A stretch of 30,887 bases of DNA, taken from assembly GCF_003334405.1 (NCBI RefSeq), contig NZ_QOWM01000028.1. The stretch is one strand, 5' to 3'. This document shows positions 1 to 7,360 of this stretch, piece after piece; within the stretch, counting starts at the first letter, position 1; each line of letters opens with the position of its first letter. Below the pieces are notes generated by a model that made no database searches, was not told the origin of the DNA, and saw only the letters and a program-made list of their open reading frames with translations. A program made the position numbers and the translations under genes. This DNA comes from Escherichia coli. Its GTDB lineage: Bacteria > Pseudomonadota > Gammaproteobacteria > Enterobacterales > Enterobacteriaceae.

Positions 1-57
1 TTTCTCTTCAACCGAACCGGCTGTTTGTGTGAAGTGATTCACATCCGCCGTGTCGAT

Positions 58-115
58 GGAGGCGCATTATAGGGAGTTCTCCGCAGGCCGCAATAGAAAA
101 ATTGCAGAAAAATGA
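58..115 (-). promoter_or_regulatory. rrnE P1: rRNA operon P1-type promoter (rrnE P1-like) with A/T-rich UP element, transcribing leftward out of the window
   Basis: Minus strand reads TTGCGG-(16 nt)-TATAAT followed by GCGCCTCCATCGACACGG (GC-rich discriminator), i.e. the canonical rrn P1 core 'CTCCCTATAATGCGCC'. The -10 is the complement of 66..71, the -35 the complement of 88..93, with an A/T-rich UP-like tract at about 94..115. Divergent from purH as in E. coli. Confidence 0.7.
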
Positions 116-264
116 CTGACTGCTGCATTCCCCAGCAAAAGCCCGCTTTATACCTTTTTACGCACAGAGTTATCCACAATCATCAATGTAATTTCTGTAT
201 TTTGCCCACGGTAACCACAGTCAAAATTGTGATCACCATTGAAAGAGAAAAATTCGCGAGCGTT

Positions 265-280
265 GCGCAAACGTTTTCGT
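265..280 (+). promoter_or_regulatory. PurR operator (pur box) in the purHD control region
   Basis: GCGCAAACGTTTTCGT matches the 16-bp PurR box consensus (AcGcAAACGTTTtCnT) and is followed immediately by TACAAT (281..286), a plausible -10. It lies about 110 bp upstream of the purH ATG. Confidence 0.65.
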
Positions 281-317
281 TACAATGCGGGCGAAAAATA
301 AGGATGCCCCGTTAGGG

Positions 318-355
318 GCGTTAGCTGAGTTTTTCGCGAAAAATTCAGCTAACGC
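318..355. repeat. 38-bp near-perfect palindrome (GCGTTAGCTGAgtttttcgcgaaaaatTCAGCTAACGC) in the purH 5' leader
   Basis: Read directly from the sequence: 11-bp arms GCGTTAGCTGA / TCAGCTAACGC around a 16-nt centre that is itself near-palindromic. It ends 32 bp upstream of the purH ATG. Confidence 0.8.
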
Positions 356-387
356 TCTCTGTAATAGTCAAATCCAGGGGATTTACC

Positions 388-1977
388 ATGCAACAACGTC
401 GTCCAGTCCGCCGCGCTCTGCTCAGTGTTTCTGACAAAGCCGGTATCGTCGAATTCGCCCAGGCACTTTCCGCACGCGGTGTGGAGCTGCTGTCTACAGG
501 GGGCACTGCCCGTCTGTTAGCAGAAAAAGGTCTGCCGGTAACCGAAGTTTCCGATTACACCGGTTTCCCGGAGATGATGGATGGACGCGTGAAGACCCTG
601 CATCCGAAAGTACATGGTGGCATTCTGGGCCGTCGCGGCCAGGACGATGCCATTATGGAAGAACATCAGATCCAGCCTATCGATATGGTGGTTGTTAACC
701 TGTATCCGTTCGCCCAGACCGTGGCCCGTGAAGGTTGCTCGCTGGAAGATGCGGTTGAGAACATCGATATCGGCGGCCCAACGATGGTGCGCTCCGCCGC
801 CAAGAACCATAAAGATGTCGCAATCGTGGTGAAGAGCAGCGACTATGACGCCATTATTAAAGAGATGGATGACAACGAAGGATCGCTGACGCTTGCAACC
901 CGTTTCGACCTCGCCATCAAAGCCTTCGAACACACTGCCGCCTACGACAGCATGATTGCCAACTACTTCGGCAGCATGGTTCCGGCTTACCACGGTGAAA
1001 GCAAAGAAGCCGCCGGTCGCTTCCCACGCACGCTGAACCTGAACTTCATTAAGAAGCTGGATATGCGTTACGGCGAGAACAGCCACCAGCAGGCTGCCTT
1101 CTATATAGAAGAGAATGTGAAAGAAGCCTCCGTTGCTACCGCAACCCAGGTTCAGGGTAAAGCCCTCTCTTATAACAACATCGCCGATACCGATGCGGCG
1201 CTGGAGTGCGTGAAAGAGTTCGCCGAGCCGGCATGTGTGATTGTGAAGCACGCCAACCCTTGCGGCGTGGCTATCGGCAATTCCATTCTTGATGCTTACG
1301 ATCGCGCGTACAAAACCGACCCAACCTCCGCATTCGGCGGCATCATTGCCTTTAACCGCGAGCTGGATGCGGAAACCGCACAGGCCATCATTTCTCGTCA
1401 GTTTGTCGAAGTGATTATTGCGCCGTCCGCCAGCGAAGAAGCCCTGAAAATCACCGCCGCCAAACAGAACGTACGCGTTCTGACCTGCGGTCAGTGGGGC
1501 GAGCGTGTTCCGGGCCTCGATTTCAAACGCGTGAACGGCGGTCTGCTGGTTCAGGATCGTGACCTGGGGATGGTCGGTGCGGAAGAACTGCGCGTGGTGA
1601 CCAAACGTCAGCCGAGCGAACAGGAACTGCGTGATGCGCTGTTCTGCTGGAAGGTGGCGAAGTTTGTGAAATCCAACGCTATCGTCTATGCCAAAAACAA
1701 TATGACTATCGGCATTGGCGCGGGCCAGATGAGCCGCGTGTACTCCGCAAAAATCGCCGGTATTAAAGCGGCCGATGAAGGCCTGGAAGTGAAAGGTTCC
1801 TCGATGGCTTCTGACGCGTTCTTCCCGTTCCGCGACGGTATTGATGCCGCCGCCGCTGCGGGCGTGACCTGCGTAATCCAGCCTGGCGGTTCTATCCGTG
1901 ATGACGAAGTGATTGCCGCCGCCGACGAGCACGGTATTGCGATGCTCTTCACCGACATGCGCCACTTCCGCCATTAA
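388..1977 (+). CDS. purH: Bifunctional AICAR transformylase / IMP cyclohydrolase
   Basis: 529-aa ORF starting [27 protein letters not shown], with MGS-like and AICARFT domains recognisable. Length equals E. coli PurH. purD follows 11 bp downstream. Confidence 0.97.
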
Positions 1978-1988
1978 TGGAGCAATAG

Positions 1989-3278
1989 ATGAAAGTATTA
2001 GTGATTGGTAACGGCGGGCGCGAGCACGCGCTGGCCTGGAAAGCGGCCCAGTCGCCGCTGGTTGAGACTGTTTTTGTTGCTCCGGGTAATGCAGGCACTG
2101 CACTGGAACCCGCGCTGCAAAACGTTGCTATTGGCGTGACCGATATCCCGGCGCTGTTGGATTTCGCACAAAACGAAAAGATTGATCTGACCATCGTCGG
2201 CCCGGAAGCGCCGCTGGTGAAAGGCGTGGTCGATACCTTCCGCGCCGCCGGGCTGAAAATCTTCGGCCCAACCGCAGGTGCGGCCCAACTGGAAGGCTCA
2301 AAAGCGTTTACCAAAGATTTCCTGGCCCGCCATAAGATCCCTACGGCGGAATACCAGAACTTCACCGAGGTAGAACCTGCGCTGGCGTATCTGCGTGAGA
2401 AAGGCGCGCCAATCGTCATTAAAGCGGACGGTCTGGCTGCCGGGAAAGGCGTTATCGTGGCGATGACGCTGGAAGAAGCGGAAGCGGCTGTTCACGATAT
2501 GCTGGCGGGCAACGCTTTTGGCAACGCGGGTCATCGCATCGTTATCGAAGAGTTCCTCGATGGCGAAGAAGCGAGCTTTATCGTGATGGTGGACGGCGAG
2601 CATGTGCTGCCGATGGCTACCAGCCAGGATCACAAACGCGTAGGCGATAAAGATACCGGACCAAACACCGGCGGGATGGGCGCTTACTCCCCCGCGCCGG
2701 TAGTAACCGATGACGTTCATCAGCGCACCATGAAACGTATTATCTGGCCAACCGTGAAAGGCATGGCGGCGGAAGGCAACACCTACACCGGTTTTCTCTA
2801 CGCGGGCCTGATGATCGACAAACAGGGCAATCCGAAGGTTATTGAATTTAACTGCCGCTTTGGCGATCCGGAAACCCAGCCGATTATGCTGCGCATGAAG
2901 TCCGATCTGGTTGAGCTCTGCCTGGCGGCCTGTGAAAGCAAACTGGACGAGAAAACGTCCGAGTGGGATGAACGCGCTTCTCTCGGCGTGGTGATGGCTG
3001 CGGGTGGATATCCGGGTGATTACCGCACCGGTGACGTGATCCACGGCCTGCCGCTGGAAGAAGTGGCAGGCGGCAAAGTGTTCCACGCGGGCACAAAACT
3101 GGCGGATGACGAGCAGGTAGTGACCAACGGCGGGCGCGTACTGTGCGTCACCGCGCTGGGTCATACCGTGGCAGAAGCGCAGAAACGCGCCTATGCCTTA
3201 ATGACCGATATCCACTGGGACGACTGCTTCTGCCGGAAAGATATCGGCTGGCGCGCTATCGAACGCGAGCAGAACTAA
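1989..3278 (+). CDS. purD: Phosphoribosylamine-glycine ligase (GAR synthetase)
   Basis: 429-aa ORF starting MKVLVIGNGGREHALAWKAAQSPL, an ATP-grasp protein. Length equals E. coli PurD. Operonic with purH. Confidence 0.97.
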   Translation: MKVLVIGNGGREHALAWKAAQSPLVETVFVAPGNAGTALEPALQNVAIGVTDIPALLDFAQNEKIDLTIVGPEAPLVKGVVDTFRAAGLKIFGPTAGAAQLEGSKAFTKDFLARHKIPTAEYQNFTEVEPALAYLREKGAPIVIKADGLAAGKGVIVAMTLEEAEAAVHDMLAGNAFGNAGHRIVIEEFLDGEEASFIVMVDGEHVLPMATSQDHKRVGDKDTGPNTGGMGAYSPAPVVTDDVHQRTMKRIIWPTVKGMAAEGNTYTGFLYAGLMIDKQGNPKVIEFNCRFGDPETQPIMLRMKSDLVELCLAACESKLDEKTSEWDERASLGVVMAAGGYPGDYRTGDVIHGLPLEEVAGGKVFHAGTKLADDEQVVTNGGRVLCVTALGHTVAEAQKRAYALMTDIHWDDCFCRKDIGWRAIEREQN

Positions 3279-4600
3279 CGCGACAGTTTTGCCAATAGCG
3301 TTTTGCGCGTGATCCCTAACTGACGGGCGGCTTCGGTTTTGTTGCCGCCCGTTTTCTCCAGCGCCGCCAGAATCACCTCTTTTTCCACTTCCACCAACGG
3401 CTGAATATCCTGACTTTGTCCCAGCGGGATCGGCGTACTGGCAATCGCCAGCGGCAGCTCGCGTTCGGAAATATATTCCCCGGTCAGCAGCACCACTGCC
3501 CGTTCCACCGCGTTTTCCAGCTCACGAATATTTCCCGGCCAGTCGTAATGAATCAACAGATCCATCGCCTGGGGCGTAAAACCTTTTACCGCCTTGCGAT
3601 TACGCTCGGCAAAGCGCTGCAGAAAATGGCCAGCCAGCAGAGGGATATCTTCCCGCCGTTGCCGCAGCGATGGTACTTCAATCGCCACCACATTCAGGCG
3701 ATAGTAGAGATCCTGGCGAAAACGCCCGGCATTCACCTCTGCGGCAAGATCGCGATGGGTCGCCGCAATCAGCCGGACATCAACCGAGATAATCTGGTTG
3801 CTACCGACACGCTGAACTTCGCGCTCCTGAATCGCACGCAGCAGACGCACCTGCATCATCGGCGAGATATCGCCAATTTCATCGAGAAACAGCGTGCCGC
3901 CGTCCGCCTCAACAAAGCGCCCTTCCCGGCGTTTATCGGCTCCAGTAAACGCCCCTTTTTCGTGACCGAACAATTCAGATTCCAGCAAGGATTCGTTGAG
4001 TGCCGCACAGTTGAGCGTTACCAGCGGTTTTTCGCTACGTGCGCTACTGGCGTGAATCGCCCTGGCGACCAGCTCTTTACCGGTGCCGGAATCGCCGTGG
4101 ATCAGTACCGTGGCTTCCGATGGCGCGACGAGGGCGATTTCACTGAGCAGGTGTTGCATCGCCGGGCTTTTACCGACCATACCGAACTGGCTGGCAGTCA
4201 CCGCAGGTGTTTCAGCATCAATACTGTGCGTATGCGCGAGCGCTTTTTCCAGCGTCGCCTGTAGGTTATCGAAATCCAGCGGCTTGATGAGATAATCCAG
4301 CGCCCCAGTTTTCAGTGCCTCTACCGCCGTCTCGACGCTGGAGTACGCAGTCATAATCAGCACCGGAATTGCCGGGTTTAACGCTTTGATCTCTTTCAGC
4401 GTGGCGATGCCGTCCATCTCCGCCATTCGCACATCGCAAAGCACAAGATCAAAAACCTGTTCCCGCACCTGCTCCAACGCCTGTCGCCCGCTGTTCGCCA
4501 GCGCGACGTTATAGCCCCAGCCGCGCAGTAAAGCCTGCAAAATAGTGCAGTGGCTAATGTCATCATCCACCACCAGAATATCGATATTATCGTGCGTCAT
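3275..4600 (-). CDS. zraR: Sigma54-dependent two-component response regulator (NtrC family)
   Basis: 441-aa ORF with a receiver domain ([13 protein letters not shown]...), an AAA+ sigma54-activator core ([14 protein letters not shown]) and a C-terminal HTH. ATGA overlap with upstream zraS. Confidence 0.95.
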
Positions 4601-5994
4601 CCTTGTGGGTCCTTACGCGTAATATTGACCGGAAGCCAGAGGGTGAACGTTGAGCCTTTTCCCTCCTGGCTTGCGACCTGAATTGTACCACCGTGTTGTT
4701 CAACAATATTATGCACGACCGCCAGCCCCAATCCGGTGCCTTCGGCTTTAGTGGTGAAGTACGGAGTGAAGATGGCATCAAGCTGATCTGCCGCAATTCC
4801 CTTACCGCTGTCGGTAACGCTGATTTTCACGCCCGCGCCGCTTTCGCTGGCCGTCACGCTAATCACGCCATGCTGACCAATCGCCTGAATAGCATTGAGA
4901 TAGAGATTCAACAGGACCTGAGTCAGCCTGTCCGGGTCGGCCTGAATTTCCGGTAATGTGTCGTTGGCGGTAAAGCGTAACTGGATCTCCCGGCTGTTTG
5001 CATCCTGACTTACCAGCTGTAATGAGTGGTTAATCAGCGTGTTGAGATCCACCGCCTGCAAAGCCAGATGCGTTGGCTTAACCAGTTCCAGCAACTCGCT
5101 TACCACGCGGTTTAAACGGTCGGCCTCTTTCGCCATCACCTGCGCCAGTTGATGCGCTTCTCCCCCTGCAGGCGCGCGCTCGGCAAAGTATTTCGCCAGT
5201 CCTTTAATCGAGGAAAGTGGGTTACGGATTTCGTGGGCAACGCCTGCCGCAAGATGCCCCAGCGCCACCAGCTTCTCTTTGCGCTTCATTTCATCTTGTA
5301 GAAGCTGGCGCGAGCGCAGATAGCGGCGATACCAGAAGAATGACAATACGCTTGCCAGCAAGACCGTCGCCAGGGCGAAGAGGATAATCAGGGTATTGCG
5401 CTTTTCCCCACTCTGGGTTGCAACCAGATCACTGGCATCAACGGCGATAAAAATAGCCTGTTGTGCATCTACTTGTGGCACAGCTTTGCCGTTACAGCGC
5501 GGCATATTGTGCATTCCATGCCGCCAGGGCGCTGACATTGGCTGGAACAAACGATAGACCTCAAGTGCAGGCGTAGTTTCCGTTTTCCCAAGCAGCCGCC
5601 AGCGGGAGTTTTCCTCTGGCTTTAATTTCTGCATTTCATCCGGCGAATAGAGCGCACGCCCGACCTTATCGGGGTCGCTATGAAGAATAATGATGCCCTG
5701 CGCATCGGTGACTGCGAACCACAACACTCCCGGCTGTCCCGCCATCTCTTCCAGAAGCGCCTGTTGCTGTACATGGTGCATTCGCATCCCCATCCCTACG
5801 CGGCTTCCCGACTCCAGAGCGCGGATAAGCACATTACCTTTTTCCAGTAATGCCTGGCGGTCTGCCTCGCTTGCCCGCCCATAATCACGAATCACAGTTA
5901 CCGCAAACAATCCCACCAGCCCAACAATGACCACGGGGAGGATCGCGCTTAACCATTTAGCTAAGGAGTCTTTAGAACGTTGCATAAAACGCAT
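4597..5994 (-). CDS. zraS: Sensor histidine kinase of the zinc/envelope-stress two-component system
   Basis: 465-aa ORF with an N-terminal transmembrane segment, periplasmic domain, second TM, an H-box (HEIRNPL) and an HATPase_c region (GTGLGLAVV). The 3' end overlaps the zraR start by 4 nt. Confidence 0.95.
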   Translation of the reverse strand: MRFMQRSKDSLAKWLSAILPVVIVGLVGLFAVTVIRDYGRASEADRQALLEKGNVLIRALESGSRVGMGMRMHHVQQQALLEEMAGQPGVLWFAVTDAQGIIILHSDPDKVGRALYSPDEMQKLKPEENSRWRLLGKTETTPALEVYRLFQPMSAPWRHGMHNMPRCNGKAVPQVDAQQAIFIAVDASDLVATQSGEKRNTLIILFALATVLLASVLSFFWYRRYLRSRQLLQDEMKRKEKLVALGHLAAGVAHEIRNPLSSIKGLAKYFAERAPAGGEAHQLAQVMAKEADRLNRVVSELLELVKPTHLALQAVDLNTLINHSLQLVSQDANSREIQLRFTANDTLPEIQADPDRLTQVLLNLYLNAIQAIGQHGVISVTASESGAGVKISVTDSGKGIAADQLDAIFTPYFTTKAEGTGLGLAVVHNIVEQHGGTIQVASQEGKGSTFTLWLPVNITRKDPQG

Positions 5995-6024
5995 CTTCTT
6001 CTTTGCCTGCTCATCCCTTTCTGA

Positions 6025-6043
6025 CAGCAGAAATCATGCCATC
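6025..6043 (-). promoter_or_regulatory. Candidate sigma54 (-24/-12) promoter for zraSR
   Basis: Minus strand reads TGGCATG-ATTT-CTGCT, with GG and GC 12 nt apart as in the consensus TGGCACG-N4-TTGCW. It lies about 30 bp upstream of the zraS ATG. Confidence 0.5.
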
Positions 6044-6092
6044 TTTTATCAGCGCTTACCCTGCGCTGTAACACAAAGGCTTAAGTTTCAAT

Positions 6093-6138
6093 GAGTAAAA
6101 ATGACTCGCTACCCGCAGCAGGCGAGTCATTTTTACTC
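6093..6138. promoter_or_regulatory. Perfect 17-bp inverted repeat separated by 12 bp; probable ZraR enhancer (UAS) shared by the divergent zraP and zraSR promoters
   Basis: GAGTAAAAATGACTCGC (6093..6109) and GCGAGTCATTTTTACTC (6122..6138) are exact reverse complements. They sit between two divergent sigma54-type promoters, as expected for an NtrC-family activator site. Confidence 0.65.
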
Positions 6139-6180
6139 GTTTATCATGCCAGATTACCCGTCATATCAGCGTTTCATCGT

Positions 6181-6197
6181 TGGCACGGAAGATGCAA
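6181..6197 (+). promoter_or_regulatory. Sigma54 (-24/-12) promoter for zraP
   Basis: TGGCACG-GAAG-ATGCA matches TGGCACG-N4-TTGCW with correct GG/GC spacing. It lies about 35 bp upstream of the zraP ATG, with a GGAGG RBS at 6220..6224. Confidence 0.7.
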
Positions 6198-6231
6198 TAC
6201 CCGAAGTAAGACAACCACTGGAGGATTAACC

Positions 6232-6657
6232 ATGAAACGGAACACGAAAATTGCCCTGGTAATGATGGCGCTTTCAGCAATGGCGATGGGATCGACATCT
6301 GCATTTGCTCACGGCGGACACGGTATGTGGCAGCAAAATGCCGCGCCTTTGACCAGCGAACAACAGACAGCGTGGCAGAAAATCCATAATGACTTTTACG
6401 CTCAAAGCAGCGCACTGCAACAGCAACTGGTGACGAAGCGTTATGAATACAATGCCCTGTTAGCCGCGAACCCACCGGATAGCAGCAAAATTAACGCGGT
6501 CGCCAAAGAGATGGAGAATTTGCGTCAGTCGTTAGATGAGTTACGGGTGAAACGAGATATCGCGATGGCTGAAGCGGGTATTCCGCGCGGAGCCGGAATG
6601 GGCATGGGCTACGGCGGCTGCGGTGGTGGCGGTCATATGGGTATGGGCCACTGGTAA
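6232..6657 (+). CDS. zraP: Periplasmic zinc-binding chaperone / signalling-pathway modulator
   Basis: 141-aa product MKRNTKIALVMMALSAMAMGSTSAFA... with a signal peptide and Gly/Met/His-rich termini. Start chosen at the ATG behind a GGAGG RBS and downstream of the sigma54 promoter; the longer ORF from 6091 would begin inside the ZraR inverted repeat. Confidence 0.9.
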   Translation: MKRNTKIALVMMALSAMAMGSTSAFAHGGHGMWQQNAAPLTSEQQTAWQKIHNDFYAQSSALQQQLVTKRYEYNALLAANPPDSSKINAVAKEMENLRQSLDELRVKRDIAMAEAGIPRGAGMGMGYGGCGGGGHMGMGHW

Positions 6658-6658
6658 A

Positions 6659-7360
6659 TCAGAACGTTTTCTCGTTGGGTTGCCAGCGACAGAAATCAGA
6701 GTTTGCCACTAACAGTAATTGCGAACCTTCGGGCGCTTCCAGCCATGCCACGCTGACATCAACAGAAGAGCGGCTCTGGCGGCGCTCGATATGCGCTATC
6801 GCCTGCGAATCTAAATCAGGTTTAATGGTTTGCCCTTCGCAGGTGGTCACGGTCTGTTCCATCGCATGCCAGCGCCCCTGGCGCAGCACGACTCTCCCCT
6901 GACGTAAGGCATCGCTAATCTGGCGGATCTGATCAGCACGATAACGGTATAAATCGATTTGGTCGTTAGAAAGCTGCTGCTTTTCCCCATCGGATTCACG
7001 TTGCATAAAGCTCAGATCACCGCGATCGTCAAAACGCGCGCGAATATTCACCGGCGGTTTGCTGTAAACATTGATATTGATGAGCGTGAGGTTATCGCCC
7101 TGCCAGCGATACTCTCGCGTCGTGGTATCGCCACTGCGCCACGGGCTAAACACGGCAAGCAGATGCACATTATCGCCGCTGTCTTTTCGCCAGATGCGTA
7201 CCGCGCCCTGGTCTTCAGCAAATCCACTGGCGGTAAAGGGAGGAAGTGAAGAGTTATGACTACAGGCAGTGAGAAGCAGAGCGCCAGCCAGCATCAATGA
7301 TCGACGCCAGAAAGACAAAAGGGGTGAAACCACCCCTTCGTTAAAACTGTTCACTGCCAC
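6659..7360 (-). CDS. yjaH: Uncharacterised putative lipoprotein (DUF1481 family)
   Basis: 233-aa ORF with a GTG start 6 nt after the hupA stop. N-terminal RR...LMLAGALLLTAC looks like a signal peptide with a lipobox (LTAC). Exact start is uncertain; the E. coli annotation is about 231 aa. Confidence 0.8.
   Translation of the reverse strand: MAVNSFNEGVVSPLLSFWRRSLMLAGALLLTACSHNSSLPPFTASGFAEDQGAVRIWRKDSGDNVHLLAVFSPWRSGDTTTREYRWQGDNLTLININVYSKPPVNIRARFDDRGDLSFMQRESDGEKQQLSNDQIDLYRYRADQIRQISDALRQGRVVLRQGRWHAMEQTVTTCEGQTIKPDLDSQAIAHIERRQSRSSVDVSVAWLEAPEGSQLLLVANSDFCRWQPNEKTF

Follow-up and report, generated by a model that had tools for sequence, protein, structure and literature searches.

Gly/Met/His-rich tails of Escherichia coli ZraP: a conserved soft-ligand motif with a linker that varies in length between strains

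ZraP is described as a zinc-dependent periplasmic chaperone and as a repressor of ZraSR, which represses only in its zinc-bound form and whose chaperone activity is raised by zinc, as stated in two articles (PMC10848872; PMC4987338). Its location in the periplasm is likewise given in reviews, PMC4987338 among them. Two further papers (PMC9175090; PMC3852070) mention "two zinc-binding domains" and refer for this to Noll et al. 1998 and Appia-Ayme 2012, and according to a citing paper, Cu(II) is held more tightly than Zn(II) (PMC8836040). Wang et al. (2019) found that ZraP binds Ag+ in vivo as well as in vitro, and that the protein with a Cys-to-Ser exchange loses this binding (PMC6557469). Since ZraP has a single cysteine, we infer that the mutated residue was Cys130, which would place a soft-metal ligand in the C-terminal tail. 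A residue-level assignment of metal ligands was not found in the open-access papers citing the ZraP work. In 2015, Petit-Hartlein and colleagues reportedly described E. coli ZraP as an octamer with four interfacial Zn/Cu sites near the N-terminus, while the C-terminus is said to be needed to polymerize dimers into this octamer (a tetramer of dimers); the same work is also said to have found that no Zra protein confers resistance to Zn or Cu. With metal sites near the N-terminus and a C-terminus that reportedly serves polymerization, the role of the C-tail in zinc sensing may be indirect. The His/Gly-rich ends of ZraP have been described since 1998, and metal binding and oligomerization were studied from 2012 to 2021, so this part of the picture is already known. 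What the present analysis adds is confined to two points, the series of tail alleles among strains and the generality of such tails across the family.

The ortholog from Salmonella enterica (STM4172; structure 3LAY) shares the helical hairpin with the E. coli protein, at 70–72% identity over the modeled core, and both have GMGYGGCGG...GGHMGMGxW and GMWQQ in common. However, the N-tail of the Salmonella protein is longer (GHHWGNNDGMW vs. HGGHGMW), and a further insert, YGGGYHR, sits in its C-tail, which has 29 residues after AGIP compared to 23 in the K-12 allele and ends in NW instead of HW. ATCUN (NH2-X-X-His) is an N-terminal Cu(II)/Ni(II) motif. It was considered for E. coli ZraP and rejected, as HGGHGMW has its histidines at positions 1 and 4 and not at 3, whereas X-X-H would be matched by the mature N-termini predicted for Salmonella (GHH...) and for Citrobacter (RHH...).

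Beyond the orthologs, the likeness is one of fold or composition. CpxP and Spy are periplasmic helical-hairpin accessory proteins or chaperones of envelope-stress two-component systems, and ZraP resembles them down to an LTSEQ stretch at residues 40–44. The fold comparison with CpxP (3ITF) gave a TM score of 0.43–0.44. Membership of ZraP in the CpxP/LTXXQ family (PF07813) was rejected, with an E-value of 0.018 for the Pfam LTXXQ model; the NCBIfam CpxP model was rejected as well, since its score of 20.9 bits (E = 3e-4) lies far below the cutoff of 148 and the match covered only residues 1–34, the region of the signal peptide. ZraP is therefore related to CpxP and Spy at the level of clan or fold and is not a member of their family. 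Neither CpxP nor Spy is known to carry Gly/Met/His/Cys tails. The best structural neighbor of the core after 3LAY is CnrX, the periplasmic Ni/Co sensor of Cupriavidus (TM about 0.6, Foldseek probability 0.98–1.0), although the sequences are only 16–18% identical (E about 0.2–0.6). CnrX binds its metal inside the helical bundle and not in terminal low-complexity tails. With two M-G-M units, His and Cys in a flexible Gly-rich context, the C-tail of ZraP, a protein that binds Ag+ and Cu (PMC6557469; PMC8836040), is like the Met/His-rich soft-metal segments of periplasmic Cu/Ag proteins, such as the Met-rich insert of CueO, CusF and PcoE/SilE, and like the M-x-M "Mets" motifs of Ctr1; this is a resemblance in composition alone and not homology in sequence.

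The window, i.e., the whole 30,887-nt stretch of E. coli DNA that was analyzed (NZ_QOWM01000028.1), contains the textbook zraP–zraSR locus, and the encoded protein is ZraP. The coding sequence together with 1,499 nt around it is identical to E. coli K-12 MG1655, and in RefSeq this K-12 locus is annotated with the same zraP–zraSR arrangement. The protein scored 274.4 bits against the ZraP equivalog model NF008584 (cutoff 200), a match that spans residues 1–141 and profile positions 1–145. Pfam PF13801 (Metal_resist; heavy-metal resistance / periplasmic heavy metal sensor) matches residues 8–120 with E = 4.8e-23, and the Salmonella structure 3LAY is matched over the full length with E = 2e-51. 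The gene adjoins zraSR in divergent orientation, has a sigma-54-type promoter and is preceded by the ribosome-binding site GGAGGA. Features of the locus are summarized in Table 1.

Table 1. Features of the zraP locus and their positions in the window
Feature	Position	Strand	Remarks
zraR, sigma-54-dependent response regulator	3275..4600	-	NF007689 equivalog, 995 bits vs. cutoff 760
zraS, sensor kinase, divergent from zraP	4597..5994	-	NF007688 equivalog, 842 bits vs. cutoff 479
20-nt inverted repeat AATGAGTAAAAATGACTCGC / GCGAGTCATTTTTACTCGTT	6090..6141	.	95% complementary, zraS–zraP intergenic
Sigma-54-type -24/-12 element TGGCACGGAAGATGCA	6181..6196	+	36 nt upstream of the zraP ATG
zraP CDS	6232..6657	+	ATG 6232, TAA 6655–6657; 141 aa + stop
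Predicted signal peptide, residues 1–26 (MKRNTK / hydrophobic stretch / AFA)	6232..6309	+	read from sequence
N-terminal tail HGGHGMW, residues 27–33	6310..6330	+	6/7 G/M/H/C
Helical hairpin core, residues 34–119, incl. LTSEQ (LTXXQ) motif	6331..6588	+	AF2, 3LAY match
C-terminal tail GAGMGMGYGGCGGGGHMGMGHW, residues 120–141	6589..6654	+	19/22 G/M/H/C
Tandem hexanucleotide ATGGGC x2 encoding (MG)2, polymorphic unit	6598..6609	+	exact tandem repeat
Cys130 codon, sole ZraP cysteine	6619..6621	+	95% conserved; lost in natural 9-bp deletion
Terminal motif H135-M-G-M-G-H-W141	6634..6654	+	strongly conserved residues
Second exact 6-nt tandem TATGGG x2, within terminal motif	6636–6647	+	repeat detection

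In the intergenic region between zraS and zraP, the inverted repeat lies approximately 40 nt upstream of the sigma-54-type element. From its place between two divergent sigma-54 genes, and from what Leonhartsberger reportedly described in 2001, it is a candidate enhancer site for ZraR. Within the window, an exact TGGCAC-N6-TGCA (here TGGCAC-N5-ATGCA) occurs only at the sigma-54-type element, and a search of positions 5950–7000, including the gap between zraS and zraP, gave no sigma-70-like promoter. The review PMC4987338 states that the zraP promoter depends on sigma-54 and ZraR. On the other side of the gene, the convergent yjaH reading frame ends at 6659, which leaves 1 nt to the zraP stop codon. 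No terminator-like hairpin was found between 5950 and 7000, and transcription of zraP and yjaH must therefore each enter the other gene.

The translation of the gene reads MKRNTK...AFA/HGGHGMWQQ...GIPRGAGMGMGYGGCGGGGHMGMGHW, followed by the stop. A putative signal peptide was recognized by eye from a basic n-region, a hydrophobic h-region and a c-region with alanine at -3 and -1 of the AFA/H site. According to the -3/-1 rule, mature ZraP would begin at His27. The original prediction had let the mature protein begin with AHGGHGMWQQ, of which the tail stands, but not the leading alanine, as this is the predicted -1 residue.

Both tails are as rich in glycine, methionine, histidine and cysteine as had been proposed. 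Set against approximate E. coli proteome frequencies that were entered by hand, the share of these residues corresponds to a binomial P of 4e-5 for the N-tail and 4e-14 for the C-tail, while they make up only 4 of the 86 core residues. The C-tail also tops the G/M/H/C content among 14,685 segments of 22 residues, taken from every stretch of 150 aa or more without a stop in the six frames of the window. In the mature protein, the only cysteine and four of the five histidines sit in the tails. The C-tail offers Cys130, His135, two M-x-M pairs and the terminal tryptophan, and the N-tail offers His30 and, at the predicted free N-terminus, His27. This distribution agrees with the soft-metal ligand character that had been ascribed to the tails, as do the conservation described below and, in the papers cited above, the zinc domains, the preference for Cu(II) over Zn(II) and the Cys-dependent binding of Ag+.

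An AlphaFold2 model built from a 77-sequence alignment contains the helical hairpin typical of PF13801, with helices at mature residues 16–52 and 58–88 (pLDDT > 90), and superimposes on the 3LAY chains with TM scores of 0.90–0.95 (normalized by target). For mature residues 1–6 and 98–112, the pLDDT fell below 50. Thus, both tails are predicted to be disordered, in agreement with the unmodeled ends of the 3LAY decamer, in which 77–81 residues per chain are modeled out of a construct of 175 residues; the confidence of a monomer model is, however, no proof for the oligomer.

For the comparison across genera, 74 enterobacterial cluster representatives were aligned with the window protein (75 sequences). 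Columns containing gaps were found in 0 of 80 positions of the core, but in 10 of 18 positions of the N-tail and 24 of 36 positions of the C-tail. Near-identical Salmonella proteins account for roughly half of this set, and with percentages that are weighted to Salmonella accordingly, the conservation in the C-tail was 99% for Met125, 91% for Tyr127, 95% for Cys130, 100% for His135, 97% for Met136, 100% for Gly137, 95% for Met138 and 97% for Trp141. With the same weighting, Met32 in the N-tail was conserved at 99% and GMWQQ at 93–99%, and the two C-tail blocks GMGY-GGCGG and GGHMGMGxW at 91–100%. The spacer between these blocks varies, from nothing (CGGGGHM in the window) over one extra residue (e.g., R) to YGGGYHR, and the 31 distinct C-tails differ mostly in this spacer. 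The alignment of C-termini from E. coli and Salmonella, which had been suggested as a check, hence places all indels outside the core, with a varying spacer and kept motif blocks. What had been called a "C-terminal repeat region" does contain repeat units, but it is not a plain repeat; it consists of a conserved motif with a variable linker.

The His-bearing segment of the N-tail behaves differently from these blocks. It reads HGGH in E. coli, GHHWGNND in Salmonella, RHHWGNGG in Citrobacter and RDGWGNHG in Kosakonia-type proteins, and is thus neither conserved in sequence nor constant in length between genera, which counts against a model in which the tails supply the ligands. At the resolution of 90% clusters, nearly all Salmonella C-tails are 29 residues long. 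One 27-member Salmonella cluster has a 26-residue tail without GMGY, and in rare Salmonella representatives (P0082, P0086, P0096, P0079 set) the tail cysteine is swapped for Tyr, Phe or Trp. In addition, three proteins from ENA metagenome contigs (P0009, P0020, P0039) are mosaics, half E. coli-like and half Citrobacter- or Salmonella-like; these could be chimeric assemblies or the result of true inter-genus recombination in zraP.

When 1.84 billion cluster representatives were scanned in full with HMMER, 445 relatives came up, and tail statistics were calculated for 71 representatives of 50%-identity clusters that are apparently full-length and have a single core. In these distant homologs, the segment after the core is 0–120 residues long, with a median of 34. 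Compared to background, it is enriched 4.7-fold in Gly, 4.1-fold in Met, 2.6-fold in His and 2.7-fold in Cys. At least one cysteine is present in 55 of the 71 tails, at least one histidine in 59 and at least two methionines in 46, and the stretch of 15 residues in front of the core is likewise enriched in G, M and H. What these tails have in common is their chemistry and not their sequence (GMMGGGMMHGG..., GYGPGACWN, GHGKGHG...). The ZraP tails are therefore one case of a recurrent design in PF13801, a helical core with soft-ligand tails, and no peculiarity of E. coli. Some distant PF13801 proteins (P0139, P0149, P0178, P0181, P0213, P0221, P0238) carry two tandem helical cores, and in P0139, P0181 and P0221 Gly/Met-rich low-complexity linkers lie between and after the copies.

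Within E. coli, zraP was present in 5,421 of 5,426 complete genomes. With counts that are identity-band proxies from short allele-specific queries, not per-genome calls, and that come from an unevenly sampled collection, the 141-aa allele with (GM)2, found in K-12 and E2348/69, accounts for approximately 3,450 genomes (approximately 64%), the 139-aa allele with (GM)1, found in E. coli B and NU14, for approximately 1,820 genomes (approximately 34%), and the 143-aa allele with (GM)3, found in VL46, for 80–87 genomes (approximately 1.5%). By the same proxy, a 136-aa allele as in strain 25-06685, in which a 9-bp deletion (GGCGGCTGC) drops Gly-Gly-Cys130, occurs in at least 5 genomes (approximately 0.1%), a 160-aa allele as in ET490 in 54 genomes (approximately 1.0%), and an intact tail motif in approximately 99% of the genomes with zraP. 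The expectation that the C-terminal tail would vary in length between strains was thus confirmed, by four in-frame alleles of 136, 139, 141 and 143 aa and by a frameshift that replaces the tail.

The in-frame series of 139, 141 and 143 aa differs by whole units, and the DNA at this site consists of exact tandem units, as is expected for slippage. Two or three units were found in haplotypes with A121, and one or two units in haplotypes with T121; with the number of units changing within each of the two flanking haplotypes, no fewer than two indels must have arisen independently at the site. Strain 23AR0806 was considered as a third haplotype, T121 with (GM)3, and rejected, because its 143-aa protein is the same as in VL46 and thus no independent event. 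Four of the at least five genomes with the Cys-less allele (L006:73-483; H146–H150) are nearly identical in size and are probably one clone.

The 160-aa allele arises from a duplication of AC after nt 362 of zraP (GGTAC to GGTACAC at nt 362–363, about position 6593 of the window; L007:73-494; H158–H182). Residues 1–121 are retained, and 39 unrelated, partly hydrophobic residues (PEWVTAAAVVAVIWVWATGKSERFLVGLPATEIRVCHQQ) take the place of the whole Gly/Met/His/Cys tail. Many hosts, countries and laboratories are represented among the 54 genomes, and RefSeq labels zraP of ET490 as "frameshifted". A cluster of 237 metagenome proteins (P0016) shows the same frameshift. In KFu021, a disrupted allele was found, in which an IS1A element is inserted after about codon 42 (L004:1606-2808) and both halves of zraP are annotated as pseudogene fragments. 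Furthermore, 25 E. coli records contain a zraP that is only 80–90% identical to that of the window, and two zraP matches lie on plasmids. A divergent metagenomic allele (P0083, L010), used as a megablast query against the E. coli genomes, gave no match to these 80–90% records. In a limited literature search on zraP and frameshift, no mention of the tail polymorphism was found.

With regards to the function of the tails, we consider it likely that they are disordered and carry the metal ligands, that metal is coupled to assembly, and that the length of the spacer drifts by slippage. The helical hairpin core would assemble into a barrel-like oligomer, from which the tails would extend as flexible, disordered arms bearing nearly all soft and borderline metal ligands. 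We infer that the tails of neighboring subunits may donate His, Cys and Met to inter-subunit sites for Zn(II)/Cu(II) and Ag(I)/Cu(I), and that the occupancy of these sites may stabilize the dimer and the higher oligomer and thereby switch on the chaperone and repressor activities. Units would be added to and dropped from the ATGGGC x2 repeat and the GGN runs, presumably through replication slippage, and because the linker is unstructured, the resulting changes in tail length would be tolerated. A different division of labor is possible, albeit at less than even odds: the C-tail could mainly be an oligomerization element that takes dimers to the octamer or decamer, with the physiological Zn/Cu sites confined to the region near the N-terminus and soft ligands that are incidental or serve non-physiological Ag+ only. 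The N-terminal sites and the C-terminal polymerization that Petit-Hartlein and colleagues reportedly observed would fit this reading, as would the 3LAY decamer with its unmodeled tails and the Gly/Tyr/Met-rich low complexity, which makes the tails plausible self-association elements. Yet Ag+ binding is abolished by the Cys-to-Ser exchange (PMC6557469), and Cys130, His135, Met136 and Met138 are kept at 95–100% while the Gly spacer varies, which would be needless for a pure "sticky tail". Methionine, histidine and cysteine are also enriched besides glycine in the distant homologs, and the metal and assembly roles are compatible with each other and not mutually exclusive.

That Cys and His are so strictly conserved, and that Ag+ binding depends on the Cys, would also be left unexplained if the tails were client- or partner-binding arms, with Met/Gly-rich segments that hold on to unfolded proteins of the envelope or to the ZraS periplasmic domain, and with metal acting through the core only. 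We regard such arms as unlikely, and direct contacts of the tails with clients or with ZraS were not found in the open-access papers citing the ZraP work, even though other chaperones use flexible Met-rich segments to bind hydrophobic clients and the ZraP tails are predicted to be disordered. The double role of ZraP as chaperone and ZraSR repressor, as stated in PMC10848872 and PMC4987338, and the partner-modulating role proposed for its C-terminal domain in the review PMC3852070 would be in line with this reading. Hardly any credence can be given to the view that the tails are neutral low-complexity sequence from slippage in GGN/ATGGGN repeats, and it was rejected because conservation across genera extends to specific Cys, His, Met and Trp residues. 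Tandem hexanucleotides, length polymorphism and the persistence of a tail-less frameshift allele in 54 genomes are in favor of neutrality, but it accounts neither for specific non-Gly residues that are conserved at 91–100% across genera nor for a compositional bias that is repeated in 71 distant homologs with unrelated tails. The functional data on the cysteine (PMC6557469) and the retention of the motif in about 99% of the zraP-bearing E. coli genomes likewise speak against it. Tails that carry metal ligands and are coupled to assembly are the preferred reading.

Beyond correct annotation, the finding matters little. The existence of 54 genomes with the frameshift and at least five with the Cys-less allele means that the tail is dispensable for the survival of those lineages, a point against the preferred reading. 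It is rather improbable that the tail alleles, i.e., (GM)1, (GM)2 and (GM)3, the Cys deletion and the frameshift, are functional and not neutral, with an altered oligomer state or an altered capture of Ag, Cu or Zn. If this were true, the activation set-point of ZraSR and envelope-stress or antibiotic tolerance would be shifted between E. coli lineages. Natural tail mutants are already present in E. coli populations and could be used as material for tail-deletion tests.
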